From: a virus
UHGV virus genome: UHGV-1599718
Length of the DNA stretch: 17,932 nucleotides
Reading direction: 5' to 3' (one strand)
Positions 1-17,932 of the stretch are shown here, piece by piece. The notes beneath the pieces were generated by a model. The model did no database searches. It was not told where the DNA came from and saw nothing but the letters and a program-made list of their open reading frames with translations. A program made the position numbers and the translations under genes. The number at the start of each line of letters is the position of its first letter. The first letter of the stretch is position 1.

Positions 1-94
1 TGACATTTTTTACAGGTCGGCGAGTCTGCGTCTTCCTTCCTTCGAGGATGGCCCTAACCATATCGTCATTAAAAACAACACCACGTTCTTTCAT
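1..94 (-). CDS. phage protein, N-terminal fragment only (gene continues beyond window start); ASCH-like N-terminal motif
   Basis: Minus-strand ATG at 94..92 overlaps the TGA of the upstream ORF (ATGA). It opens a frame reading MKERGVVFNDDMVRAILEGRKTQTRRPVKNV with no stop before position 1. The motif resembles ASCH-type phage proteins, from memory only. Confidence 0.35.
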   Translation of the reverse strand, partial: MKERGVVFNDDMVRAILEGRKTQTRRPVKNV

Positions 95-249
95 TTAGAA
101 GCCACCTTGTTCAATTTCCGGCGACAAGACACGCAATCATCAGGACTCTCAAAAGTGTCTGGCTCACGGTAATCACCAAAATACATCCAACGGCCGCAAA
201 TGCTGGTTACTTCACCTTCATTAAAATAATGATGTTTATTCGCCTTCAT
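91..249 (-). CDS. small Cys-rich hypothetical protein (about 52 aa, possible zinc-ribbon)
   Basis: Internal ATG at 249..247 (MKANKHHYF...) chosen over the track start at 345 to avoid a 67-nt overlap with the upstream gene. CxxxW and CxxC motifs present. Stop overlaps the next start. Confidence 0.35.
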   Translation of the reverse strand: MKANKHHYFNEGEVTSICGRWMYFGDYREPDTFESPDDCVSCRRKLNKVASK

Positions 250-278
250 TGGCCTGACCCATCCGGCATTTTTCTTGC

Positions 279-644
279 TCACTTCAACTCCTCCCGACGA
301 CGTTCCTGAAGCTCTAGCATTGCGGCTCGGAAATCCTGCCACCATTCTTCATCGGCTACTGGGGTGTTCCGCTCCAGCACCTTGTCCGCATCGGCGATCA
401 GGTTTGCCAGACTCTTGTCTGAAATCTTCGTTACCGGAGTCGTTGGTTGCTCAACCTGCCCGATAGGTTTTATCGTGCTCAAAAGGAGGCGACGGCGGGA
501 AAGTGGTGCCCCACAACGACGGCCATCTTCCTTGCGATATGTTTCTTTCGGACCAACACACCAGGTTGTCGGCGTCTCGCGCAACTTCACTTTTTTCTCA
601 CCATCATTGGTAATGATTATTCCGGTATGTGTTTTGATGCTCAT
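279..644 (-). CDS. hypothetical phage protein (121 aa)
   Basis: ORF with ATG at 644..642 overlapping the TGA of the upstream gene (ATGA), so part of the same minus-strand operon. No family recognised. Confidence 0.5.
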   Translation of the reverse strand: MSIKTHTGIIITNDGEKKVKLRETPTTWCVGPKETYRKEDGRRCGAPLSRRRLLLSTIKPIGQVEQPTTPVTKISDKSLANLIADADKVLERNTPVADEEWWQDFRAAMLELQERRREELK

Positions 645-922
645 GCCACAGCCCCTCTCAACGGCTTAACTTTGGCTAATAAGGTGTTAAACAACATGGA
701 GTTAGGATTCATGCCAAATGGCAATTCCGGTTTAGCGGAGTAGTACAGGCAACCATTTATTTTCCTGGTTGTTATCTGTCCTTCGGCAACCATGCTTCTC
801 AGTCTGCAACGCATAGAGTTCTGCGACACACCAATGTGCTCCGCGATTACGTCCACTTTTGAACATGGGTGATCGGTCAGGAAATTAATCACATCTTGGG
901 GGTTAATAATTTTGCGTTTCAT
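641..922 (-). CDS. putative winged-helix DNA-binding protein (93 aa)
   Basis: Second in-frame ATG at 922..920 has an AAGGA about 10 nt upstream; the first ATG at 943 lies inside an AT-rich repeat with no RBS. HTH-like segment VDVIAEHIGVSQNSMRCRLRSMVAEGQI. Confidence 0.45.
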   Translation of the reverse strand: MKRKIINPQDVINFLTDHPCSKVDVIAEHIGVSQNSMRCRLRSMVAEGQITTRKINGCLYYSAKPELPFGMNPNSMLFNTLLAKVKPLRGAVA

Positions 923-942
923 TGTCGAGGCATCCTTATACA

Positions 943-968
943 TTTATATAAATATATAATTCTATATA
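943..968. promoter_or_regulatory. AT-rich operator/promoter-like repeat (TATATAA / TCTATA family), copy a
   Basis: tttatataaatatataattctatata lies directly upstream of the 641..922 gene; same motif family as copies at 2152, 5908, 5982, 6688 and 11052. Confidence 0.35.
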
Positions 969-988
969 CGGCGGGAGACGTCCCGCCG
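969..988 (-). terminator. stem-loop, candidate terminator after the 355-aa gene
   Basis: Perfect inverted repeat cggcggga-gacg-tcccgccg 12 nt downstream of the stop at 1000; followed on the minus strand by an AT/U-rich stretch. Confidence 0.4.
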
Positions 989-999
989 TAGGCTTACTG

Positions 1000-2067
1000 T
1001 CAGGCTTTCAATAGCGATTCTTTTAGATATCGGGCATCAGCCAGGGCGTTTGGAGTAATCTTGCGAACCCATGCATTACGGGTTGGACTCCACTTAAAGG
1101 CGCGTGATTTAAGCAGCGAACGAATGTTTGCCTCTGGTTTGCCAGGGAAATAAAACAGGATGCGGTTATCCTCTGGATCTATCTCCATAGAAAAGCCGTC
1201 GTATTCTTCGCGCTGTGCTCCTGTTACAGACTTGACCGATTCAAGCTCCTTAATACGGCTCTGTAGTCGTTTGATTTCGGCGTTATTGTTGCTCAGTGCG
1301 TATGAAGGGAATCCGATGCGCCCACAGAAATCTCCGGCCAGTAACTCTTTGGCTTCGCTTTCTGTAAACCTGAGATCGATTAATGCAGAAAGCTGCTGTA
1401 ATTGGTCTTTTTTGTATTTGCGAATGGCCTTATTTGCGGCCTTCATTTTGACGTGTGACTTCATGCAGCCTTGCAGCTTACGAAGCAACTTAAATAGCGC
1501 ATCAGGATCATCAGACGAAATTCCATTACGACCAACACCTGCGGCTTTGCTCTCGTAGTGTGATGCTTTACTTTCGCATTCAACAAACGCTTTTCTGAAT
1601 AACGCATCAGCTTTAGACAAACGGCGGCGATGGCCTTTCGCGCTATAATGGTCAACTAAAATCGGCTGGCCTAACGGGATCACATCCAACAGGTCATGCG
1701 CTCGCTTATGCGCTACCGCACCTTCTTTTCTGGCTTTTTCTGCACGAGCAATATATCGGGCAAGACGCGCGTTCTGGCGTTCCTGATAGGTGTTTACGTA
1801 ATCATCTCCGCGCTGCTGCTGTTCAAGCCATGCTTTGCGCAGATCTTCTGTTACGTCCACCAGCTCCGCAGGGATACAACCAGTTTGGGCTTCATAAGAG
1901 TAACCATCCTCATAGATACGCCCATCGTCTTCAACAAAGAAAAAGGTTTCGTGCTCATCGCTTTTGACCATACGACCATTAACATGGCGTAATAGGTAGC
2001 CAGTATCAGTGCTTAACAGGCTGTTAGGGTTGTTGATCCAGTCAGAAATAATTACTTGTTTATTCAT
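1000..2067 (-). CDS. hypothetical protein (355 aa), unknown function
   Basis: Long uninterrupted ORF starting ATG at 2067..2065; preceded by the conserved 89-bp leader. No family confidently recognised (DUF3560-like is a weak recollection only). Confidence 0.75.
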   Translation of the reverse strand: MNKQVIISDWINNPNSLLSTDTGYLLRHVNGRMVKSDEHETFFFVEDDGRIYEDGYSYEAQTGCIPAELVDVTEDLRKAWLEQQQRGDDYVNTYQERQNARLARYIARAEKARKEGAVAHKRAHDLLDVIPLGQPILVDHYSAKGHRRRLSKADALFRKAFVECESKASHYESKAAGVGRNGISSDDPDALFKLLRKLQGCMKSHVKMKAANKAIRKYKKDQLQQLSALIDLRFTESEAKELLAGDFCGRIGFPSYALSNNNAEIKRLQSRIKELESVKSVTGAQREEYDGFSMEIDPEDNRILFYFPGKPEANIRSLLKSRAFKWSPTRNAWVRKITPNALADARYLKESLLKA

Positions 2068-2073
2068 CAGATT

Positions 2074-2162
2074 TCTCCGGTTTAACCAGGGCGGGTATCG
2101 CTCGGTTTCGGTTATAACCTTAGGAAATTTTTTCCCACCTGTAAAGCACTTTTTATATAAAT
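2074..2162 (-). promoter_or_regulatory. conserved 89-bp promoter/5-prime leader element, copy A
   Basis: 89 bp differing at 2 positions from 10975..11063, in both cases immediately upstream of a minus-strand start codon; contains the palindrome GGTTATAACC. Confidence 0.55.
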
Positions 2163-2188
2163 CTATAATTATATATTTATAGATTTTC
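2152..2188. promoter_or_regulatory. AT-rich operator-like repeat, copy b (10-bp inverted repeat AAATCTATAA / TTATAGATTT)
   Basis: ttttatataaatctataattatatatttatagatttt; inverted halves aaatctataa and ttatagattt separated by 7 bp. Confidence 0.4.
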
Positions 2189-2236
2189 GATGTTCCCGAT
2201 GTCTACACACCATCAAAACAGCTCAAAATGACACTT

Positions 2237-2614
2237 TCACTCTCTTCGCTTTTTCAAATAGTCGACAACATACGCCCTGGCTTTTGCCAGCTTCCGGCGA
2301 TACTGTCTGAGACTAAGAGAAAGGGCGTGGGCTTTATCAATATGCGGTGCATTTATGTCGAGGCCCCGAATCTCCCACGCCCCGTATTCAATTCGGACAA
2401 CCAGCGCCGCAGTCTCATCAACTACCGTGAGGGCCGTCACCGCTCCCTCGATACTGGTTTCCAGTGAGTCATTTGGTGCGCCGCCCCCTCCGGTAAACTG
2501 GCAACGCGTAACCATCATCATTTCTAACATCGACGCGAAACCGCTACGGGCGTTGCAGCCATTGCGCACCCACAGCGCCCATAGCTCAAACAAGCTATCC
2601 AGATCGCGTCTCAC
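2237..2614 (-). CDS. phage antitermination protein Q-like (125 aa)
   Basis: N-terminal LFELWALWVRNG resembles the ERWGAWAANN motif of small Q-family antiterminators (QuuD-like), recalled from memory. GTG start at 2614..2612, 3 nt after the upstream stop. Confidence 0.55.
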   Translation of the reverse strand: MRRDLDSLFELWALWVRNGCNARSGFASMLEMMMVTRCQFTGGGGAPNDSLETSIEGAVTALTVVDETAALVVRIEYGAWEIRGLDINAPHIDKAHALSLSLRQYRRKLAKARAYVVDYLKKRRE

Positions 2615-2617
2615 TGT

Positions 2618-2950
2618 TCAGATCTCCCGTATCGTGACGGGATAAAGCGCCTCTACCTGCTTTTTCTTCATGATGTAGACGTCTGTTCGCACACCTTTAG
2701 TGTCGACACAATCAATCGTCCCATCGTCATAAAACACCATGAAATCAAGTTTATAAACGACACCACCAGGCAGATGAAAAGGCACCTGCATAAGAAACGT
2801 CACAACGCGGCCAGCTTTTCTCAGTAGCTTCAGTTCGCAGTAGTAATCAGCCTCTTTTTTGCTATCAAAAGCGATATCATCGACAACAGTTTTTTTATTG
2901 CCGTATTTGCTTTTCCTAGTCGCTGGTTTGCGAAAGCCGGTATATCTCAT
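2618..2950 (-). CDS. DUF1064-like phage protein (110 aa)
   Basis: Motif GNKKTVVDDIAFDSKKEADYYCELKLL is typical of DUF1064 proteins in lambdoid nin regions. ATG overlaps the upstream stop (ATGA). Confidence 0.55.
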   Translation of the reverse strand: MRYTGFRKPATRKSKYGNKKTVVDDIAFDSKKEADYYCELKLLRKAGRVVTFLMQVPFHLPGGVVYKLDFMVFYDDGTIDCVDTKGVRTDVYIMKKKQVEALYPVTIREI

Positions 2951-3351
2951 TTGGTATCCCCTGGTACTTCACCAAGACTAAGATCAAACCCAATTTCGTC
3001 TTTAACTGACTGCGGCAACAGCTCCCACGTCTGCGCACACAAAAATTCATCGGTGCCATAACGCTCAACAAAGCGAGCACAATTACTCAGGGGAGGGTGA
3101 CGAACGGCAATATGCGGAGGCACGCGCCCACCACCAGGCACAACACCGCGATGATGTGGTGCGCACAACCCAAAGCTATGGAAGTGGCAATTCTCATCAA
3201 CGCTGCCGTAATCAGGATCGTGATGTAGCTCCGTCCACAGCTCTGGATTCTCAATTTCACGGCCATCAATAATGCAAGCTATGCAACCCACGTGAGTGAG
3301 CACCGCTTGTATATAAAGTTTCTCTTTCTTCGTTGGTGTACGTCCGTTCAT
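2947..3351 (-). CDS. putative HNH-type nuclease, Ref (recombination enhancement function)-like (134 aa)
   Basis: Cys/His-rich pattern (HVGCIACII ... HHDPDYGS ... CHFH ... CAPHH) consistent with an HNH/Ref-like fold. Start overlaps the upstream stop. Confidence 0.45.
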   Translation of the reverse strand: MNGRTPTKKEKLYIQAVLTHVGCIACIIDGREIENPELWTELHHDPDYGSVDENCHFHSFGLCAPHHRGVVPGGGRVPPHIAVRHPPLSNCARFVERYGTDEFLCAQTWELLPQSVKDEIGFDLSLGEVPGDTK

Positions 3352-3584
3352 CAGCGCCCCTTACCATTGATAAAGAGGTTGAACTCGTTGATTAACTGGA
3401 CATACATGCTTCTGGCCGCGTAGTTCTTTGCCAGCTCTTTACGGGATGAGATCCCGCAAAACTCACGCAGAATCACAGAGGCCTCAGAACTGTTTGAAAC
3501 GTTCTTCCCTGTTTTACTGGTCAGAAAGCGCCAGAATTGGGGATTCTGGCAATGCATCGCAGCACCGCGAACATAACTACTCAT
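3351..3584 (-). CDS. hypothetical phage protein (77 aa)
   Basis: ORF with start and stop overlapping its neighbours (ATGA at both ends). Confidence 0.45.
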   Translation of the reverse strand: MSSYVRGAAMHCQNPQFWRFLTSKTGKNVSNSSEASVILREFCGISSRKELAKNYAARSMYVQLINEFNLFINGKGR

Positions 3585-4096
3585 TGATGGCCCCCGTCAT
3601 TTCTAGTGCTTTTCACCGTGCGGCTTCTTAAAAACCTGCCATCACGAACAACAGACACTTCTCGTTTACCCAACCTCATTTCACGGCGGTAACATTCAGA
3701 AAATGCCTCGTCCGGCATCATATAAATGCGACGCTTCGCCTCCGTATCCAGAAGGGAACGGCTTGGGGTTACATATAAGAACGACTCATCAATAGGGACA
3801 AAACCACGAGCAAGAATTGCTGGCAGAATGCCAGGAAGAACGCAGAAAACAGCTCCACGATGCAGCAACATCTGGTACTCCATGACCTCCGTTATCCCCG
3901 TGACGACTGTTACGGTGTCACGTCTGTTACGGCTGGCAACCAGTCGCTGCACACGTCCAATTTTCTGATCTACAGATAGATGTTTGCTATCGTTATCAAT
4001 ATGATCGATAACAAATCCTTTAATCGTTTGATCAAGGTAGTGCACCACCTGCGATTGAATCTGGTGATTATCACCAAAGAAGGCCAGAATCATCAT
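3581..4096 (-). CDS. hypothetical phage protein (171 aa)
   Basis: ORF with ATG at 4096 overlapping the stop of the Cro-like gene; no family recognised. Confidence 0.55.
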   Translation of the reverse strand: MMILAFFGDNHQIQSQVVHYLDQTIKGFVIDHIDNDSKHLSVDQKIGRVQRLVASRNRRDTVTVVTGITEVMEYQMLLHRGAVFCVLPGILPAILARGFVPIDESFLYVTPSRSLLDTEAKRRIYMMPDEAFSECYRREMRLGKREVSVVRDGRFLRSRTVKSTRNDGGHQ

Positions 4097-4587
4097 TCCT
4101 CAAGCCTCCCAAGTGCTGAACGCCGGGCGTTGCTAATCTCCTTATGAATCAGCTCGATATCGCTGGAATCTTTATTCTTAAGCTCCAGCACGGCAATCGC
4201 ATCACGAACCTCTGAAACGGTTACGTGTGAGTGTTTCCAGCGAGCAATGAATCGCGGACCGCGTAGATTGCAACGCTCCGCAGGCATCCCCAGCTCAGAG
4301 AAAACCGCTTTCAGCCTTGATAAGCAGTTAACAGGGAGATTCCCTTTGATCTTGTTCTGCCGAACCGATGTGCCATCGCTACGCTGGCGCTGACGTTCGG
4401 CAAAATCTGCCGCCCATTGCTGGACGTTAATCCGGCCTTCCGAATACGCCACCAGCAGCGTCAGGTTATCCGCACGAGGGAATCTCTCGAAGCGATACCA
4501 GGCACCAATCAGTGATGACGTAAAGCCAAACTTTCTGGCAACACCAATTTGGCCTCCATTTTCGTCAACCCACTCCTGAAAGGTCAT
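4093..4587 (-). CDS. Cro-like HTH DNA-binding protein with C-terminal extension (164 aa)
   Basis: First gene of the leftward operon, divergent from the CI-like gene. GGAG RBS 9 nt upstream of ATG 4587. N-terminal HTH-like segment GQIGVARKFGFTSSLIGAWYRFER. Confidence 0.55.
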   Translation of the reverse strand: MTFQEWVDENGGQIGVARKFGFTSSLIGAWYRFERFPRADNLTLLVAYSEGRINVQQWAADFAERQRQRSDGTSVRQNKIKGNLPVNCLSRLKAVFSELGMPAERCNLRGPRFIARWKHSHVTVSEVRDAIAVLELKNKDSSDIELIHKEISNARRSALGRLEE

Positions 4588-4606
4588 TTAACGAACTCCA
4601 GTTAAA

Positions 4607-4642
4607 ACCACGATATGTGGTATTAAAACCACATATCGTGAG
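4607..4642. promoter_or_regulatory. tandem operators O1 (ACCACGATATGTGGT, 4607-4621) and O2 (ACCACATATCGTGAG, 4628-4642)
   Basis: Two 15-bp ACCAC-N5-GTGGT dyads with centres 21 bp apart, between divergent CI-like and Cro-like genes. On the minus strand they fall in the spacer and -10 region of a TTGAAA-N17-TTTAAT promoter candidate. Confidence 0.6.
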
Positions 4643-4709
4643 TTTTTCAATGGGCGAAACAAAAAATAACCTTCTATTTGTGGTCCACCTCTCGTCTTAC
4701 CATGTGAAA

Positions 4710-4724
4710 ACCACTAAATGTGGT
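4710..4724. promoter_or_regulatory. operator O3 (ACCACTAAATGTGGT) upstream of the CI-like gene
   Basis: Same dyad architecture, 38 bp upstream of the start at 4762; adjacent TATAAA at 4729-4735. Confidence 0.55.
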
Positions 4725-4761
4725 AATGTATAAATAACCCACCATTCACGATTGATGAGAC

Positions 4762-5418
4762 ATGAAAAGCAACGACGAGAACATCAAGAAAGAAATAGGT
4801 CTGCGCATTCAGACTCTACGGAAACAATCCGGCATGACTGCCGGAGATCTCCAGCAAGTCACTGGAATAGGCTTAAGCACCTTGCAGAACTATGAGGCCG
4901 GATTAAGACAACCATCTATACCTGCCATCAAGAAAATCGCGCACGCCCTGAAAGCATCAGCGCCTTATATCGCGTGCTTAACAGATAACCCGTTCCCACC
5001 CCAGAATACTAACGCTCCTGTTATTCCTGGGCTTGTAGCTATAAAAAATGACATAGCATCGCACGCCGGAGAAAAACCAGTGCTGGCGATAGAACAGGAG
5101 ATTCTACGAAGCAAGAACATCAACCCATCGTCTCTGTCAGTTCTCCAGAGCAACGATGAGTTAATGTCACCAACAATATCCCCTGGCTCCCAAGTCCTGA
5201 TTAATACAGACGATACAGAGATTCATGAGGGGATCTATGCCCTTGAAGACAGAAATGGCCTGGTTGTTTTGAGGCACTGTAGAGTCATACCGGGTGACAA
5301 TGCTGTTATGCTGTCAACCGAAAGGGATGCTGAAATGAACACTAAGCATCTGAATAACGAGGAATTTAAGCGTTATAAAGTTCTTGGCCGCGTAGTTAGT
5401 GTTGTCAACTGGTTATGA
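4762..5418 (+). CDS. CI-like prophage repressor (HTH_XRE N-terminal domain plus S24 LexA-like peptidase C-terminal domain, 218 aa)
   Basis: HTH segment IGLRIQTLRKQSGMTAGDLQQVTGIGLSTLQNYEAG. C-terminal region ELMSPTISPGSQVLINTDD ... GDNAVMLS ... KVLGRVVSV matches the Ser/Lys autopeptidase layout of LexA/CI proteins. Confidence 0.8.
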   Translation: MKSNDENIKKEIGLRIQTLRKQSGMTAGDLQQVTGIGLSTLQNYEAGLRQPSIPAIKKIAHALKASAPYIACLTDNPFPPQNTNAPVIPGLVAIKNDIASHAGEKPVLAIEQEILRSKNINPSSLSVLQSNDELMSPTISPGSQVLINTDDTEIHEGIYALEDRNGLVVLRHCRVIPGDNAVMLSTERDAEMNTKHLNNEEFKRYKVLGRVVSVVNWL

Positions 5419-5460
5419 TACACAGCACGGCGAAAGCCGTGCATTTCTACGCTCAAAAAA

Positions 5461-5475
5461 ACCACATTTTGTGGT
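5461..5475. promoter_or_regulatory. operator O4 (ACCACATTTTGTGGT) upstream of the 5511 gene
   Basis: Same dyad, immediately followed by TTGACA (5477-5482) and TATAAA (5494-5499), 36 bp before the ATG at 5511. Confidence 0.5.
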
Positions 5476-5510
5476 TTTGACAACATGTAAAAGTATAAAA
5501 GAGGCTACGC

Positions 5511-5885
5511 ATGGAATTACATACAGCCAATAAAAACGAAACTCTGATCACTGCTGGAATCGAAATCCAAGCGTTGAACATAGCGATTGAGTGTATGTTA
5601 TGCCAACTCATTGATAATGAGAAAGATATCGACTGGATAGAATCTATCCTTCATCTGGCATCAGAACAAAAAGTCTGCCTCAAAACGGCCTTACAATACG
5701 ATGTGCCAGCGGTATCGAAGCTGTGCCAGTCATTGATGGCATATAACAGGGCTATTATTTCTGTATGCCTCATGATTCTCGATGAAAACACCCCTCTTAG
5801 CGACCGCTCAGAAGCTGCTCTAACCCTCTCACGTAAACAGCGACAGCTAGCAAATCAACTGATATCAACGATAGCTGACCTCTGA
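5511..5885 (+). CDS. hypothetical protein (124 aa), unknown function
   Basis: ORF with AGAGG RBS; operator O4 upstream and a terminator hairpin downstream. Confidence 0.6.
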   Translation: MELHTANKNETLITAGIEIQALNIAIECMLCQLIDNEKDIDWIESILHLASEQKVCLKTALQYDVPAVSKLCQSLMAYNRAIISVCLMILDENTPLSDRSEAALTLSRKQRQLANQLISTIADL

Positions 5886-5890
5886 CTGCA

Positions 5891-5908
5891 AGCGGGCTAA
5901 CGCCCGCT
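5891..5908 (+). terminator. stem-loop, candidate terminator after the 5511 gene
   Basis: agcgggc-taac-gcccgct directly after the stop at 5885, followed by an AT-rich run (ttatatgattat). Confidence 0.5.
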
Positions 5909-6013
5909 TATATGATTATAGATTTATATAATTATATAAAACGCTTTTCATCCGCCAAAAAGTTGGTTATGCTTATCTCATTCTATAAATATAGATTTAT
6001 AGAATTATATAAT
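5908..6013. promoter_or_regulatory. two AT-rich repeat clusters (copies c at 5908-5939 and d at 5982-6013) upstream of the ParA gene; candidate operator or centromere-like site
   Basis: ttatatgattatagatttatataattatataa and tctataaatatagatttatagaattatataat; TCTATA-AA-TATAGA is a perfect palindrome. Confidence 0.4.
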
Positions 6014-6035
6014 CAAACACATGGAGTCTCGACAA

Positions 6036-6689
6036 ATGACTATATCTGTAGGTATTTTCAACGGAAAAGGCGGCGTAACCAAATCAACCATTGCTCGTGC
6101 TTTAGCAGTTGCTTATGCAAAGGCTGGCTGGAATGTATGCCTGATCGATATGGATGTGCTTAACGGAACGGTAACGCGTTGGGTACAACGCAGAATGGCC
6201 AACAATATCGAACCTGCAATCGCGGCGCAGCCGTGCGGCACGCCATCACAAGTCCAGAAAATCATCGAATCAGAAGTATACGACCTGGTTATCGTTGATG
6301 GCGGTGCCTACGCATCTGAATCAGTACCGAAGCTATCTGAATTTCTGGATATGGTTATTTTGCCAACCAGATTCTCTACCGATGACCTGGAAACCACCGT
6401 TAACACTGCTCACGGTATCGTTAAAAAGGGTGTACCAATCAAGAAAATTTGCATGGTGTTTTCCGGCGCGGCTGAAAACGAAGCTGACTATATTGAAGCC
6501 CAAGAGTACCTGGCTAATACGCCATACTTTGTTGTTGATAAGTACATTCCCCACAAGCCAGCTCTGAGCAAAGCTCAGGATAAGGGCTTAAGCCTCATTG
6601 AGTGCTCATACGTTGCGCCACGCAAAAAGGCAGACGACGTTATTCAGGGGATTATCAACCAGCTTGAGGCTCTGACTACTGCCGCGTAA
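6036..6689 (+). CDS. parA: ParA/ParF-type partition ATPase (deviant Walker A)
   Basis: GKGGVTKST deviant Walker A at the N-terminus and DLVIVDGG Walker B-like motif. ATG 6036 has GGAG 9 nt upstream; the track start at 6021 lacks an RBS. Confidence 0.85.
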   Translation: MTISVGIFNGKGGVTKSTIARALAVAYAKAGWNVCLIDMDVLNGTVTRWVQRRMANNIEPAIAAQPCGTPSQVQKIIESEVYDLVIVDGGAYASESVPKLSEFLDMVILPTRFSTDDLETTVNTAHGIVKKGVPIKKICMVFSGAAENEADYIEAQEYLANTPYFVVDKYIPHKPALSKAQDKGLSLIECSYVAPRKKADDVIQGIINQLEALTTAA

Positions 6690-7193: not shown

Positions 7194-7209
7194 ATTCAAC
7201 CATAAAAAA

Positions 7210-7225
7210 GGCCCCCGAAGGGGCC
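7210..7225. terminator. bidirectional intrinsic terminator
   Basis: ggcccc-cgaa-ggggcc flanked by an A-run on the left; on the minus strand the stem is followed by ttttttatgg. Confidence 0.5.
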
Positions 7226-7231
7226 TAATCG

Positions 7232-7354
7232 CTACTTGCTGCTAATGTTTATCGTCACATTCAGAGCGTTATCAGTAATCTTCCAACCCTCCCCATGTGG
7301 CGTAAACAAAGCTCCAGTAACAACGATAAAAATACACATACAGTATTTTTTCAT
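7232..7354 (-). CDS. possible small hydrophobic peptide (40 aa); speculative
   Basis: Internal ATG of ORF 7232..7414 gives MKKYCMCIFIVVTGALFTPHGEGWKITDNALNVTINISSK; ends at the minus-strand face of the 7210-7225 terminator. Weak RBS. Confidence 0.2.
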   Translation of the reverse strand: MKKYCMCIFIVVTGALFTPHGEGWKITDNALNVTINISSK

Positions 7355-7752
7355 TGTATGGCCCTTACAGGCCGTTTCACGGCATCCCCACCGACGAAAA
7401 CAACGCGAGAGCAAGCACGGCTGCTTGTGCTTGCATGTACGGCAACGGAGAATCCTCCCCTAAAGTCGGTGCCCGGGTGCGAATCGGCGGGAAGGTCCAC
7501 AGGTATTTTACGATTATTTTAAGATTAGTAATAGGAAAGAAATTAAACGAAAAAACTCGTTTATTTTCACAAAATCAGTAACCTACCCACAATCTGTGAG
7601 TTTGCAGGCACAACAAGAACCACAATTTTTTGAAGCATAATAGTGGACTATTATTACCTTTTGGGTAAAATTAACTTGCTGCTTGTGCTTGCGTGGTTGT
7701 TTATACAACAACGTAATGCTGAAAGGACCGCGAATCCGATCAGCACGAAAGA

Positions 7753-7779: not shown

Positions 7780-7925
7780 TTTCTGCCTACCAATAAACCC
7801 ACGCTATGTGGTTGTCTCTGTTAAAATCCCGCCGTATTGACATGAATGCGCCATTGGTGGACACTTTCCGAGCCGTAGCAAAATCTACGGTCGGGATTGG
7901 AACCCCGATAATCATCATGGCGCAT

Positions 7926-7946
7926 ACCGCGTTAGCGGTTTTTTTA
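7926..7946 (+). terminator. intrinsic terminator candidate in a non-coding region
   Basis: accgc-gtta-gcggt followed by TTTTTTT. Confidence 0.5.
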
Positions 7947-8110
7947 TGCGTAAAGCACTGCTACACCCAAATTATGGTGGGGCGTGCGGGGGAGTCGTAA
8001 GACTCGCCGGATTCCATGGTGACCGGTAGTTCCAACCCTGTACGTCTCACCACCCAATGATTGGAACCAGACGGTGGTGAGTATCCTTAACCTTTAAGGG
8101 AACTATCACC

Positions 8111-8302
8111 ATGACAAACTTACCCCATGACTATTACGTCAACCTCGTAAAGATCCTTCTCAAGAAAGCCTCATACGCCGATAAATTACGCTTGGCTGAA
8201 ATCATCGAGCGCGAAGCTATGCGCATCGCCAGCAACGATAACGCTGTTTCTGACGCAAAAATCTCCCTCGTAACCAAAGTAGTTATGGGAGGTGCAAAAT
8301 GA
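8111..8302 (+). CDS. small hypothetical phage protein (63 aa)
   Basis: ORF whose TGA overlaps the ATG of the downstream Rha-like gene (ATGA); weak RBS. Confidence 0.45.
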   Translation: MTNLPHDYYVNLVKILLKKASYADKLRLAEIIEREAMRIASNDNAVSDAKISLVTKVVMGGAK

Positions 8303-9441
8303 AAACGCTTCCGACCGTTAACACCCTACAGCCTATCCTGCATAACCAGATCCCCGTTATCACTAGTGAACTTCTGGCGCAGTTATACGGAACAAAAATC
8401 AAAAACATTTCTGATAACTTTCTGAACAACTCGACGCGATTCGTAGCCGGAAAGCATTACTTTAAAATTGAAAAAAACGAATTACGCGAGTTCAAGAACA
8501 GACCCGAAACAATCGGGTTAGTTGGTAAAAATGCCCGCTCCCTAATTCTCTGGACCGAACGCGGGGCTGCACGTCACGCTAAAATGCTCGAAACCGATCA
8601 GGCGTGGGATGTATTCGAACGGCTGGAAGACTGCTATTTCAACCAGAACGCGCAAACGGCCGCGACCGTAACCGTCTCGCCAAACAATGCTCGTGAGGTT
8701 GTCGATACGCTCAACGCCAAACCGATGTTTTACATTAAGGTGTGCAATAACGAGCCACTCACAACCTCAGCCGATGTTGCCCAGGCATTCAGCACCACAA
8801 ACAATTCCATCGTTATGGCCATCGATGCGTTACGCATTCCTCGCACAGCTGCGGCACGTCATTTCTTTAAAGAGCAACGACCGCTGGAAGGAAGCGACCG
8901 CGAAATAACAATCTATCGCATGACAAAAGATGGATTTACCTTGCTCATGGAAAGTATCGACGGTCCAGGCGTGAAAGATATCAAGCTGGCCTACATTGAA
9001 GCCTTTAACGCTATCAGCAGCGTGTTAAAAACACAGTACGAGCGTGATCTGGCTAAACGACTGTACCAGGAAAAAACGATTATCCGCGCGGCAACAGAGC
9101 ATAATCGGCTATTAACGGAACCGAACTACAGGAAGGAACTAATCAAGGAGTTTGACAAGGCAACAGGGAAAACCAAAGCGGCGCTAAATCTGCCAGCAAT
9201 GACTCAGGAAAATGTGATATCAGCCTTACTTCTTGATCTGCTCAGAAACGCCAGAGCACTTATCAGCTTTGACGAAAACCTGAATCCTCAGCTCAAGCTA
9301 CTACCACCGACAGGCAAAGTAGTCGACCAGGCTGATCACAACAGCATACTCAGCGTTCTGGATGCAAACCTGCCAGCCAGGACACTACAGGATCTGATAA
9401 AAACATGTGCTGATAAGCTGGCACAGAAAAGCAGACCATAA
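8299..9441 (+). CDS. phage regulatory protein Rha family, antirepressor-like, with N-terminal ORF6N/KilA-N-like domain (380 aa)
   Basis: GGAGG RBS. N-terminal region (IPVITSELLAQLYGTKIKNISDNF ... SLILWTERGAARHAKM) resembles the ORF6N domain. Central region (PLTTSADVAQAFSTTNNSIVMAIDAL ... ITIYRMTKDGFTLLMESIDGPGVKDIKLAYIEAFNAI) resembles the Rha domain. Confidence 0.75.
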   Translation: MKTLPTVNTLQPILHNQIPVITSELLAQLYGTKIKNISDNFLNNSTRFVAGKHYFKIEKNELREFKNRPETIGLVGKNARSLILWTERGAARHAKMLETDQAWDVFERLEDCYFNQNAQTAATVTVSPNNAREVVDTLNAKPMFYIKVCNNEPLTTSADVAQAFSTTNNSIVMAIDALRIPRTAAARHFFKEQRPLEGSDREITIYRMTKDGFTLLMESIDGPGVKDIKLAYIEAFNAISSVLKTQYERDLAKRLYQEKTIIRAATEHNRLLTEPNYRKELIKEFDKATGKTKAALNLPAMTQENVISALLLDLLRNARALISFDENLNPQLKLLPPTGKVVDQADHNSILSVLDANLPARTLQDLIKTCADKLAQKSRP

Positions 9442-11130: not shown

Positions 11131-11430
11131 TCAGATGTTAAACGCTATTCGTTTTCCTGTGGGAAGCTCAACATCCAGGCTTAATTTGCCTCCCATAGCT
11201 TCAACGTAACGCTTTAATGTCGCCAGCTTTAAATCATTTCCGCGCTGCTCCAGCTTTGTTACTGCTGGCTGGCTTATACCCATCGCCTCAGCAACCTGTT
11301 TTTGTGATAACTGGAGTTCTTCACGCATCATCTGCAAGCCGACCTCAAGAATCATCTCATCTGCCATTTCTTTAATTCGCGCCTGGCTTTCCGGTGAACG
11401 GCTGGCAATCGCCTCATCTAATGTTCTCAT
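11131..11430 (-). CDS. HTH (XRE-type) antitoxin, HigA-like addiction-module antidote protein (99 aa)
   Basis: HTH segment LQLSQKQVAEAMGISQPAVTKLEQRGNDLKLATLKRYVEAMGGKL; start overlaps the toxin stop (TAATG). Confidence 0.7.
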   Translation of the reverse strand: MRTLDEAIASRSPESQARIKEMADEMILEVGLQMMREELQLSQKQVAEAMGISQPAVTKLEQRGNDLKLATLKRYVEAMGGKLSLDVELPTGKRIAFNI

Positions 11431-11777
11431 TACTTGCTCTCCAGTGTGTTCAGATGTGCTGCAAACTCATCCTCAGCTATACGCACCAGTTTTTCATAAA
11501 ACCGCTTATCGTTACTTTTGTCTCCTGCACAAAGAACGATGGCCCGGCGAATCGGATCGAACGCATAAAAGGCTCTTATCGGACGGCCAGAAAACTGAAC
11601 GCGAAGCTCTTTCATATTTTTGTACCGAGAACCTTTTACGGTATCGGCATATGGCCTGGGTAACTCAGGTCCGTAAACCTGTAGCTTTTTCAAATCAGCC
11701 AAAACCTTTTCCTGAAGAGCGTCTTCTTGCTCATTTAGCCAGTCGTCAAATCGCTGGCTAAAAAGTACCGTCCACAT
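11430..11777 (-). CDS. RelE/ParE-superfamily toxin, HigB / Gp49-like addiction-module killer protein (115 aa)
   Basis: ATG at 11777 with AGGA RBS (the track start at 11783 is TTG). Motifs WLNE..., RAFYAFDPIRRAIVLCAGDK, FYEKLVRIAEDEF and the toxin-first gene order match HigB-type killer proteins. Confidence 0.7.
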   Translation of the reverse strand: MWTVLFSQRFDDWLNEQEDALQEKVLADLKKLQVYGPELPRPYADTVKGSRYKNMKELRVQFSGRPIRAFYAFDPIRRAIVLCAGDKSNDKRFYEKLVRIAEDEFAAHLNTLESK

Positions 11778-11786
11778 GCTCAATCC

Positions 11787-12285: not shown

Positions 12286-12388
12286 AATGTTAGCGCCAGT
12301 GATATAAGACGGTAATTCACCATTTGGATTGTCCGCTCCACCCAACATGTTGTTTCCTTAAGGTTCCCACACCAGAAAGGACATCAAC

Positions 12389-14358
<1,970 letters not shown>

Positions 14359-14443
14359 CGAAAGTATTTTAGCGGGCATGAAAATGGCAAATAACGGTTA
14401 AAAATCGTGGCGTTGACAATAACAAACCTCATATTTGCATGTT

Positions 14444-15374: not shown

Positions 15375-16223
15375 TTAATGTTGGAGTGATTTCCAGGTCT
15401 TTCTTAGCCTGTTATAACGCTGCTCAACGAGGGATCGTAAATATGCAAGGTCAGCACCAGGATACATGCCATCAGCAAATTCCTGACTAACCTCTCTGGT
15501 GATTTGATGACGAAGTTCGGCCTCTCCCTTTTCACGAACAAGACGCGCAGCTCTCTCCGCTGCTTTCTGTTTTGCCTTTATCTCTCTGGCCGTCTTCCTC
15601 TGACGCCATACATTCTCCATCTGCTCCTGAATAACAATACGCTTATAATCAGCCTCCGTTATCGCTTTTTTAAGCCGTTCGCTATTCTTCGCATTGAAGT
15701 AATTAAGTTTCTGGCTAACCGCACGTCTCCATGCTTGTTCAGTAATACCAACGGTTTCCAGCAGTTGATCACGAATCTCTATTTTCGCTGGCCAATACTG
15801 TTTATTCACCCGATCCCAGCGACGTTCATAATCAATAAAACCTAACGCTTTCAGTTGCGACAACGCCCTTGTACAGCGCGTTATAGACTTGTTCCCAGCT
15901 TCGGATACGGTAGACAGGCCGCAAAAATCAGCCAACGCCTCAGCACTGGCCAGAACCCGCTTAGAAATGATGTTTACATGGTGCAAAATCGCAGCAATCA
16001 CAGCATTAATCGCCCGACGACGATGCTCGTTTATCCGGCGTTTCCGCTCTGACGGTTGATTAACGTAGAACGCAACCTCACACGTAAGATCACGACCATT
16101 AATGCGCTGTAAAGCATCAGATAATACCAGCGGCAGCTTGTGCGTATGGTGCTTTGGAGGCTGGAACTCCGGCGACAAATTACAAACGTAAGCTGAACGT
16201 AGAGACGGCATTGGTCTATCCAT
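15375..16223 (-). CDS. repA: IncFII-type plasmid replication initiator RepA (RepFIIA family, about 283 aa)
   Basis: Segment RRRAINAVIAAIL ... ADFCGLSTVSEAGNKSITRCTRALSQLKALGFIDYERRWD aligns by eye with R100/R1 RepA1 (RRRAIDALLQGL ... AIECGLATESAAGKLSITRATRALTFLSELGLITYQTEYD). Start placed at MDRPMPSL (16223); an in-frame upstream ATG at 16361 would add 46 aa and may instead be a leader ORF. Confidence 0.8.
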   Translation of the reverse strand: MDRPMPSLRSAYVCNLSPEFQPPKHHTHKLPLVLSDALQRINGRDLTCEVAFYVNQPSERKRRINEHRRRAINAVIAAILHHVNIISKRVLASAEALADFCGLSTVSEAGNKSITRCTRALSQLKALGFIDYERRWDRVNKQYWPAKIEIRDQLLETVGITEQAWRRAVSQKLNYFNAKNSERLKKAITEADYKRIVIQEQMENVWRQRKTAREIKAKQKAAERAARLVREKGEAELRHQITREVSQEFADGMYPGADLAYLRSLVEQRYNRLRKTWKSLQH

Positions 16224-16267
16224 ATGTTCGCTCTTGCGTCCACGGAAAACCAACGTATAATGGGAGT

Positions 16268-16353
16268 TGTCGAGGCGCCCATGGATTGTTGTTGGTTTTT
16301 GTTTCTTTCCGTGGATGTCGCAAGAAGCCCGCAGATTTATCTGCGGGCTTTTT
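16268..16353 (+). ncRNA. candidate CopA-like antisense RNA of the repA leader
   Basis: Plus-strand TTGCGT (16234-16239), 16 bp spacer, TATAAT (16256-16261), then about 85 nt ending in the hairpin agcccgcag-atttat-ctgcgggct plus TTTT (16326-16353). Antisense to the region upstream of the repA start. Confidence 0.45.
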
Positions 16354-16397
16354 GTTTCCATATCTGGTCACTTTTCAACCAGACACCCACAATCATA

Positions 16398-16412
16398 ACC
16401 ACGTTACGTGGT
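16398..16412. promoter_or_regulatory. operator O5 (ACCACGTTACGTGGT) in the repA promoter region
   Basis: Same ACCAC-N5-GTGGT dyad as O1-O4, about 175 bp upstream of the repA start, adjacent to a TATGAT -10 candidate on the minus strand. Confidence 0.5.
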
Positions 16413-16542
16413 TTTAAGAGAACTCTACCACAACACTTTCGGTCATGCACGAAGTCTCTCACTGATCGAACGATAATCCACCAGTAAAAGGATCTAAATT
16501 GGATCTCGTTTTGCGAGCATCATACTACTGGCCTAACTCCAG

Positions 16543-17097
16543 TCAATGATTCCCAGCCGGAAACCTGCGGTAAAGCGTGGATAAGGTAACATCGAAGATA
16601 ATCGCTATCCGCTTACGTGAAACACCATTCGCAATAAGCCTTCCGATCTGTTCCCATTGCTCTGGTGCCAATTTTGAGCGGCGTCCTCCTATCCTGCCGT
16701 TAGCCCTTGCCACCGCCAATCCTGCACGCGTTCTTTCAATCATATTTTCCCGCTCCATCTCTGCGACTGCACTCAGCATCGTGTAGGCAAAGCGGCCAAT
16801 TGAAGTGCTAATTTTTATCCCTTCCGTAATCGAAATAAACTCAATGTTGTTTGATAAAAAATAGTTTAGTAAATCAACAAGATGAATCAGAGAACGCCCC
16901 ATTCGGTCCAGCTTCCAGACAATAACCGTATCGCCCGGCCGTAACACCTTCAGTAGCTTATCAAGTCCTGGTCGTTTTGATTTAGCACCGGATATTTTAT
17001 CTTCAAAAATCCGGTCACATCCTGAACTCCTGAGCGCCTCCAATTGTAATTCCAAATTCTGGTCAAAAGTTGACACCCTCGCATAACCATATTGCAT
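16543..17097 (-). CDS. serine recombinase, DNA invertase of the Hin/Gin/Cin/Pin family (184 aa)
   Basis: N-terminus MQYGYARVSTFDQNLELQ with catalytic-Ser context; VWKLDRMGRS; C-terminal HTH (RKRIAIIFDVTLSTLYRR). Near-collinear by eye with e14 Pin. Confidence 0.9.
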   Translation of the reverse strand: MQYGYARVSTFDQNLELQLEALRSSGCDRIFEDKISGAKSKRPGLDKLLKVLRPGDTVIVWKLDRMGRSLIHLVDLLNYFLSNNIEFISITEGIKISTSIGRFAYTMLSAVAEMERENMIERTRAGLAVARANGRIGGRRSKLAPEQWEQIGRLIANGVSRKRIAIIFDVTLSTLYRRFPAGNH

Positions 17098-17107
17098 ACT
17101 TTCTAAA

Positions 17108-17932
17108 CCGCGATTGTTGCTAAAAGCGGGAAAAAATATCGTTCAGACGACACAGAGGCAATTCGCAAAAACCTCGGTTTACAGGAAACGGTAAATAAGG
17201 CTGGTAACGCCGTTCAAAAGACAGGTGATACCTTGTCCGGCGGACTTACTTTTGAAAACGACTCAATCCTTGCCTGGATTCGGAATACTGACTGGGCAAA
17301 GATTGGATTTAAAAATGATGCCGACAGCGATACTGATTCATACATGTGGTTTGAAACAGGCGACAACGGAAATGAATATTTCAAATGGAGAAGCCGCCAG
17401 AGCACCACAACAAAAGACCTGATGAATCTTAAATGGGATGCTTTGTCTGTCCTTGTTAAAGCCCTTTTCAGCAGTGAAGTAAAAATATCGACAGTCAATG
17501 CACTGAGGATATTTAATTCATCTTTTGGTGCCATTTTTCGCCGTTCTGAAGAATGCCTGCATATCATCCCGACACGAGAGAATGAGGGAGAAAATGGTGA
17601 TATAGGGCCACTACGCCCCTTTACGCTTAATCTCAGAACTGGTCGGATAAGCATGGGGCATGGTCTTGATGTTACAGGGGATATATTTGCAAACCGTTTT
17701 GCAATTAACAGTAGTACCGGCATGTGGATTCATATGCGTGACCAGAATGTTATTTTGGGACGCAATGCGGTATCCACCGATGGTGCACAGGCATTACTTC
17801 GTCAGGACCATGCTGATCGCAAATTTATGATTGGTGGACTGGGAAATAAGCAATTTGGCATCTACATGATTAATAACTCAAGGACAGCCAATGGCACCGA
17901 TGGTCAGGCGTACATGGATAATAACGGGAACT
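17108..17932 (+). CDS. tail-fibre C-terminal variable segment (no start codon of its own; 3-prime end beyond window); probably the silent alternative copy inside an invertible segment
   Basis: Open frame from the stop at 17105 to the window end, absent from the ORF track because it has no in-window stop. Translation ... NRFAINSSTGMWIHMRDQNVILGRNAVSTDGAQALLRQDHADRKFMIGGLGNKQFGIYMINNSRTANGTDGQAYMDNNGN resembles phage tail-fibre C-termini. Confidence 0.6.
17162..17187. other. gix/hix-like recombination crossover site
   Basis: TTCGCAAAAACC-TC-GGTTTACAGGAA: the right half equals the Mu gix half-site and the left half matches the TTATCAAAAACC consensus at 9-10 of 12 positions. It lies 65 bp from the invertase start, inside the tail-fibre reading frame. 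Confidence 0.65.

Follow-up and report, generated by a model that had tools for sequence, protein, structure and literature searches.

A Very Probable Gin-Type Tail Fiber Inversion Switch at the Edge of a Viral Genome from a ~48-kb Phage-Plasmid Family of Escherichia coli

Introduction

The window analyzed here, a stretch of 17,932 nucleotides of viral DNA (UHGV-1599718), ends in a serine recombinase gene followed by a reading frame that resembles the C-terminal part of a phage tail fiber and lacks a start codon. The question raised by this locus is whether the recombinase, the fiber-like frame and a 26-bp site located within that frame are parts of a programmed host range switch with its silent copy in view, as suggested by the initial annotation. 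Comparison of the window with related elements indicates that its right end is very probably the invertase-proximal edge of a site-specific inversion switch of the Gin type that controls the tail fiber of a ~48-kb phage-plasmid encoding an IncFII-type RepA. The switch itself is of a well-known, textbook type; its carriers, phage-plasmids of ~48 kb in E. coli and relatives, are common but have been little described. No description of this family or of its inversion system was found in a literature search of limited coverage, which is weak evidence of absence.

Results

The Source Element of the Window

The entire window is 97.5-99.1% identical to circular E. coli plasmids of ~48 kb. Among its genes are those for an IncFII-type RepA, ParA, a DUF3560 protein and HTH regulators, along with a Gp49/HigB-like toxin that has an HTH partner, and an ORF6N/Rha antirepressor-like protein whose gene has a C4 antisense RNA upstream of it, an arrangement known from the immunity region of P1 and P7. 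Beyond the window edge, the relatives encode baseplate, tail and tape-measure proteins of the P2/Mu type, and the deposited Yersinia phage isolates vB_YpM_39, 41 and 44 are three members of the family. Because plasmid replication genes are combined with phage tail genes in the relatives, and in view of the Yersinia phage deposits, the source element is a phage-plasmid. Judging by the near identity of the sequences, the window derives from a family of ~48-kb phage-plasmids of E. coli that encode an IncFII-type RepA and have a contractile tail similar to those of P2 and Mu.

Several parts of the window outside the switch region show recognizable organization of their own. An insertion of the IS21 family (2,131 bp, positions 12288-14418), missing from the relatives, is bounded by TG...CA ends, is associated with a target duplication of 4 bp (ATAA) and carries istA and istB. 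The product of istA (12389-13561) contains the rve domain and the C-terminal domain of Mu transposase, and that of istB (13558-14358) matches IstB_IS21 (E = 2.2e-90). Between positions 7204 and 8057, matches above the Rfam gathering score correspond to ryfA (7204-7500, minus strand), isrK (7872-7945, plus strand) and the C4 antisense RNA (7970-8057, plus strand), and this cluster lies just upstream of the ORF6N/Rha antirepressor-like gene (8299-9441). Together with the antirepressor-like gene, these RNAs resemble an immI immunity module of the P1/P7 type, here on a plasmid prophage of 48 kb. The gene for the Gp49/HigB-like toxin (11430-11783, minus strand) is followed by the HTH antitoxin-like gene (11131-11430, minus strand), and in the relatives this pair (11131-11783) is annotated as a toxin-antitoxin system of the RelE/ParE family. 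On the plus strand, a perfect inverted repeat of 16 bp is present at positions 16239-16350, along with a GC-rich hairpin that has a T run behind it. This region runs antisense to the beginning of the long repA ORF (15375-16361, minus strand), the start of which is annotated differently among the relatives, yielding proteins of 278 to 326 aa, and may encode an antisense RNA that covers the repA leader and controls copy number, as in IncFII replicons.

The Invertase and the Crossover Site

The features of the switch region are listed in Table 1. The invertase combines the N-terminal catalytic domain (Pfam Resolvase, E = 3.4e-44, residues 3-135) and the C-terminal helix-turn-helix (HTH_7, E = 2.9e-13, residues 138-181) of the small serine recombinases, which are about 180-195 aa long; with its 184 aa, it is within this range. 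In the alignment, it shows 54% identity to Mu Gin and 55% identity to P7 Cin, and the columns that are invariant across the three proteins include R7, S9, D64, R65 and R68. The closest solved structure is that of Gin (3uj3, E = 1.6e-61), with the gamma-delta (1.6e-30) and Tn3 resolvases, both at ~1e-30, far behind. In its sequence affinity, the protein is thus closer to the invertases than to the resolvases, with the catalytic serine and the Arg/Asp set retained. Among the deposited phages, the nearest invertase is that of Yersinia phage vB_YpM_44 (99.5%); three records reach at least 99% and the rest are below 90%. The protein accordingly represents a somewhat diverged lineage within the classical clade of invertases. 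Its exact allele is very common, being present in 1,208 index blocks, and the allele of the plasmid of E. coli ATCC 25922 differs from it in two residues, L25S and H79Y, at positions that vary between Gin and Cin as well.

Table 1. Features identified between the invertase gene and the right edge of the window
Feature	Position	Strand	Basis and remarks
Serine DNA invertase gene (Gin/Cin/Pin/Hin clade)	16543..17097	-	184-aa intact ORF
Candidate Fis-bound recombinational enhancer	17013..17076		Homology; inside the 5' end of the invertase gene
Spacer, invertase start codon to crossover site	17098..17161		Sequence and translation; includes TAA 17104-17106
26-bp gix-like crossover site	17162..17187		TTCGCAAAAACC TC GGTTTACAGGAA; central TC at 17174-17175
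Silent alternative tail fiber C-terminal module (Sv'-like), start of the invertible segment	17176..17932	+	In frame through the site; no start codon; ended by the window edge

The spacer between the invertase gene and the site presumably harbors the promoter and the ribosome-binding site of the invertase. A simple sigma-70 promoter/terminator scan of positions 16200-17400 found no invertase promoter, and Rfam yielded zero matches within the interval 16543-17932.

The crossover site lies 64 bp beyond the start codon of the invertase and consists of two 12-bp halves that form imperfect inverted repeats (8 of the 12 positions match) around the 2-bp TC core. It is identical to the Mu gix site in 23 of the 26 positions, with the same central TC/GA, and the alignment with Mu includes a block of 29 identical nucleotides that runs from the site inwards into the fiber frame. 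The 26-mer occurs only once in the window when up to 3 mismatches are allowed, and 200 shuffles produced 0 matches. These similarities mark the site as a gix homolog. The half TTCGCAAAAACC is the outer one and remains on the side of the invertase, whereas GGTTTACAGGAA is the inner half and belongs to the invertible segment. Assemblies of the ATCC 25922 plasmid in one orientation have an invertase-proximal site that matches the site of the window in 26 of 26 positions. In both copies, the site is translated as a conserved fiber motif, ..LGLQETVN...

The Silent Fiber Module

The plus-strand frame that contains the site opens after the TAA codon in the spacer and remains open for 275 codons up to the last base of the window (17107-17932), and no in-frame ATG, GTG or TTG is present between this stop codon and the site. 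The initial annotation, which described an invertase next to a gix/hix-type site embedded in a start-less fiber frame with an in-frame stop just upstream, is therefore correct in all of these respects, coordinates included. The product of the frame matches the Pfam family Gp34_trimer (E = 7.6e-12), and at the DNA level, identities of 87-95% are found between the frame and the variable ends of the tail fiber genes of SfMu, P88, Mu, D108 and P7. For the silent module, nucleotide identity amounts to 88.9% with the variable part of Mu S and to 93-95% with the fibers of SfMu and PhiR68_1. In the relatives, the matching stretch is annotated by NCBI as "phage tail protein, incomplete, missing N-terminus".

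When the module of the window is fused in silico at the central TC to the constant fiber part of one of the relatives, the plasmid pTD225C4_47 (L001), the result is a frame of 731 codons without a stop. The same junction between this module and the constant part is found contiguous in 133 E. coli genomes, plasmids of the phage-plasmid family among them. In the orientation captured in the window, the Mu-S-like module is the silent copy.

Architecture of the Segment in the Relatives

Close relatives match the interval from the invertase gene onwards up to the last base of the window, with identities of 97.8% for pTD225C4_47 and pE500002_49 and 98.4% for L021, a contig that encodes the identical invertase. 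The arrangement of these relatives (97.8-98.4% identical) supports the earlier proposal that the frame is the non-expressed fiber end of an invertible segment of the Mu G or P1 C kind. In the relatives, the invertase gene (minus strand) is followed by the site, the partial fiber end (plus strand), an assembly gene on the plus strand, another one on the minus strand, the complete fiber gene (minus strand) and the baseplate genes. The inverted partner site is located inside the complete fiber gene, which contains a constant N-terminal part of ~478 aa. According to the initial annotation, the segment should continue past the end of the window, where the constant part of the fiber was also expected, and this is exactly the arrangement found in the relatives.

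An inverted partner within a few kilobases had been predicted as well, and among the relatives it lies 2.7-3.1 kb away in all 15 full-length family copies examined, including seven contigs with the exact invertase of the window. The segment between the two sites measures 3,060-3,104 bp in most relatives and 2.68-2.82 kb in four of the contigs with the exact allele. A loose scan for the core ([AT]ACC-NN-GGT[AT]) detected exactly two sites in each full-length relative, and no directly repeated partner was found in these core scans. The partner site in the relatives reads TTATCGAATACC-TC-GGTTT(G/A)C... and the one expected in the source molecule of the window, inverted and beyond the window edge, would be TTATCGAATACC-TC-GGTTTNNNNNAA. 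Its center is predicted to be near coordinate 20,000-20,240, so that the window edge would fall ~2.1-2.3 kb short of it. For the molecule from which the window derives, the partner site, the second module and the constant fiber part are thus predicted by homology.

The constant fiber part contains internal direct repeats with a 132-nt offset (334 nt at 94% identity; positions 13344-13809 in relative L002), which represent a repeated collar or shaft motif and are present in all relatives compared. A contig with the exact invertase of the window, L022 (GCA_026235235.1, JAEGVG010000034.1, positions 1-6600), encodes a second invertase of 199 aa on the far side of the fiber segment. It is without a complete fiber gene, the tape measure and gpU genes abut the second invertase gene, and the outer half of the far site is a different one, TTATCTAAAACC. 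This contig looks like a rearranged or hybrid element.

Evidence of Inversion

A comparison within one strain is provided by E. coli ATCC 25922, whose plasmid belongs to the same family. The junction predicted from the flipped version of plasmid CP009073 was used as a search query and was recovered with 100.0% identity over 1,200 nt in other assemblies of ATCC 25922. When CP009073 is inverted in silico at the central TCs, it becomes identical to CP158444 (0 mismatches in 11,200 nt), as opposed to 2,164 mismatches, all within the segment, when it is left unflipped. The initial annotation had suggested a search for both orientations in long reads; in assemblies, within the scope of the phage-plasmid family, ATCC 25922 does carry both, with nothing else differing between them. 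The two orientations within a single strain are thus documented for an allele two residues (L25S, H79Y) away from that of the window, and the assemblies are a record of orientation, not of the rate of switching.

A further ATCC 25922 record, NZ_CP032086.1 (linear, 94,204 bp; L014/L015), contains two copies 48,488 bp apart with opposite orientations of the segment. It corresponds to about 1.94 head-to-tail copies of a 48,488-bp element, which points either to a mixed population that was assembled into one sequence or to a genuine dimer.

The sequences of the two ATCC 25922 sites also delimit the crossover. These sites differ in their outer halves and in one inner position (A/G), and after inversion, the inner half with the A/G difference appears at the opposite site. 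Given that the inner variant changes site upon inversion, the crossover is bounded to the shared 10-bp core ACCTCGGTTT. As expected, this interval fits a 2-bp staggered cut at TC.

The plasmids pE100248_50 and pE500002_49 of the family show the same topology, being co-linear in the flanks (99.6%) and inverted in the interior. Among the contigs with the exact invertase of the window, a window-like module is silent in L021 and expressed in L020. No exact flip isomers were found for the allele of the window itself; L016 and the flipped L019 are topological isomers, with 197 mismatches in 12,555 positions, and for L017 and L022, which were compared as potential exact flip isomers, the interior is unrelated. 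Four assemblies of ATCC 25922, Seattle 1946 and ZLWT share a single orientation and, in that comparison alone, show no sign of switching. Altogether, the invertible tail fiber switch is almost certainly active.

The Candidate Enhancer

The cis-acting enhancers of the Gin/Hin class contain two Fis sites ~48 bp apart. The initial annotation recommended a search for a Fis-dependent enhancer in the first 200 bp of the invertase gene, and a candidate was identified there by homology. It comprises two 15-mers of the form G-N13-C at positions 17062-17076 and 17013-17027 (nt 22-36 and 71-85 of the gene), a motif that is weak and common by chance. Mu gin has 15-mers at the same two positions, and both positions are within the "putative enhancer" of P7 cin (nt 19-86). 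The proximal element of the candidate is ~105 bp away from the center of the site; in the Hin system, the Fis enhancer is located ~100 bp from one of the sites, inside the invertase gene (PMC3798978). A test for synonymous constraint over the putative enhancer gave a mixed outcome, with identical codons at 62% vs. 31% in the comparison with gin and at 31% vs. 33% in the comparison with cin. The enhancer thus stands as a candidate based on homology.

Discussion

Proposed Mechanism and Alternative Interpretations

If the system operates by the established Gin/Hin mechanism (e.g., PMC3798978), invertase dimers would bind to both sites, and the site-bound dimers would be assembled, in supercoiled DNA, on the enhancer that Fis occupies within the 5' end of the invertase gene. 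Ser9 would then cleave each site at the central TC, leaving a 2-bp stagger, one pair of dimers would rotate by 180 degrees, and the ends would be religated. The flipped segment would carry two alternative fiber C-termini, each with its own assembly chaperone, and the constant N-terminal part of the fiber (~478 aa) would be fused in frame to one C-terminus or the other. The predicted outcome is a mixed population of virions with two receptor specificities.

The preserved architecture could, in principle, also be that of a fossil, in which the invertible arrangement has been locked by the two substitutions in the invertase, by decay of the partner site or by loss of invertase expression, so that the start-less fiber would be a permanent pseudogene. 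The window invertase indeed departs from the allele that has been caught flipping by L25S and H79Y, the simple scan found no promoter for it, and the partner site is outside the window. The substituted positions are, however, variable in Gin and Cin, whereas the invariant catalytic columns are all intact; the exact allele recurs in 1,208 index blocks, with the same fiber module both silent and expressed; the site matches the active ATCC 25922 site in all 26 positions; and the silent frame is still open over 275 codons. A locked switch therefore appears quite improbable. Even less credible is the interpretation of the recombinase as a multimer resolvase that serves plasmid maintenance, with the adjacent fiber remnant and the gix-like motif reflecting only conserved fiber coding sequence that a past module exchange left behind. 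Resolvases of the Tn3/gamma-delta type resolve cointegrates or multimers at res sites that are arranged as direct repeats and include accessory subsites. Such a role would be compatible with the location of the gene, 182 bp from the IncFII repA ORF, and with the translation of the site as the conserved fiber motif in both copies, but the protein is much closer to Gin (E = 1.6e-61) than to the resolvases (1.6e-30), the exact breakpoints of the inversion fall in the two sites, and no directly repeated partner was seen in the core scans.

The remaining alternative is shuffling of the p15B Min type, in which more than two crossover sites would generate many fiber variants. Exactly two sites were detected in each full-length relative by the loose core scan, and the ATCC 25922 isomers are separated by one simple inversion; these observations make multi-site shuffling highly unlikely, even though at least three inner half-site variants (GGTTTACAGGAA, GGTTTGCAGGAA and GGTTTACGAGAA) exist in the family, each tied to a different fiber module.

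The inversion switch explains why, in this phage-plasmid family, annotation pipelines place a "recombinase family protein" beside a tail protein labeled "partial, missing N-terminus". It also explains the 3-kb inversion by which assemblies of the same strain differ from one another, as they do in the reference strain ATCC 25922. Virions of these phage-plasmids probably occur in two receptor specificities, which is relevant to phage isolation, for example, on Yersinia pestis.

Comparison with Known Inversion Systems

The initial annotation left the choice between the Mu G and P1 C types open, and the geometry of the locus decides in favor of the former: as in Mu, the core is TC and the invertase gene starts on the side of the site, and the P1-like alternative does not hold. 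The order of elements, namely, constant fiber part, site, Sv, U, U', Sv', site and invertase, is that of the G segment and Gin of Mu (shared by D108 and SfMu). As in Mu, the segment does not include the invertase gene, which has its 5' end towards the site and is read in the direction away from the segment. The similarity to Mu extends to the sites (23 of 26 positions identical, central TC/GA), the candidate Fis 15-mers at the same positions of the gene, the length of the segment (3,058 bp in Mu vs. 3,060-3,104 bp in most relatives) and the variable part of S, which is 88.9% identical at the DNA level to the silent module of the window. There are also five differences from Mu. The invertase is only 54% identical to Gin; the two 26-bp sites, which are identical in Mu, differ in 4 of the 12 positions of the outer halves in the phage-plasmid family; the distance between the center of the site and the start of the invertase gene is 77 bp as compared to 67 bp in Mu; and the constant fiber part comprises ~478 aa vs. 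the 509 nt (about 170 aa) annotated in Mu. Furthermore, Mu is a transposing phage, whereas the element that hosts the present switch is a plasmid prophage with an IncFII-type RepA and a c4 immunity RNA of the P1 type.

The lifestyle of a plasmid prophage, combined with an invertible fiber segment that consists of Sv, U, U' and Sv', is shared with the C segment/Cin systems of P1 and P7. Cin of P7 is 55% identical to the invertase of the window, and cin carries an annotated enhancer in its 5' part. In P7, however, cin reads towards the segment, with its 3' end overlapping cixL, whereas it is the 5' end of the invertase gene that faces the site in the window; moreover, the central dinucleotide of the P7 sites is TT/AA, in contrast to the TC core found here, and the site centers are 4,007 bp apart.

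In the flagellar phase variation switch that depends on Hin, the invertase gene lies inside the invertible segment and it is a promoter that flips. The Salmonella Hin/hix system resembles the present one in that the recombinases belong to the same clade, the sites are 26 bp long and the Fis enhancer is found ~100 bp from one site within the invertase gene (PMC3798978), the enhancer being a candidate in the case of the phage-plasmids. In contrast to Hin, the invertase is outside the segment here and coding sequence is exchanged. An inversion of a promoter of the Hin type was accordingly rejected for this locus, given that the invertase is located outside the two sites and the flip swaps the 3' ends of coding sequences.

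The Min system of p15B is a plasmid-borne Gin-family invertase with six crossover sites that shuffles several tail fiber end segments. The present system is similar to it in that a Gin-family invertase encoded on a plasmid rearranges the ends of tail fiber genes, but differs in the number of sites, which is six in Min and two in every relative examined here. With two core matches only per full-length relative, assignment to the Min type was rejected.

Potential Exchange of Fiber Cassettes

In addition to its role in the two-state switch, the crossover site could be a portable boundary of a shared pool of fiber-tip cassettes, although this extension of the switch model seems rather unlikely. 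The idea of cassette exchange reportedly goes back to work on tail fiber mosaicism in the 1990s. Should exchange between co-resident elements also be mediated by the invertase or by homologous recombination across the conserved 10-30 bp, a plasmid prophage could sample host range modules from the prophages of each new host.

Within the family, the outer half-sites are fixed (L016-L021 and L012), and the inner variants GGTTTACAGGAA, GGTTTGCAGGAA and GGTTTACGAGAA go with different modules and with segment lengths of 2.68-3.10 kb; this linkage between inner variants and modules suggests cassette exchange at the site. At 92-98% identity and with the same junction, the module of the window is also present in fiber genes annotated on E. 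coli chromosomes.
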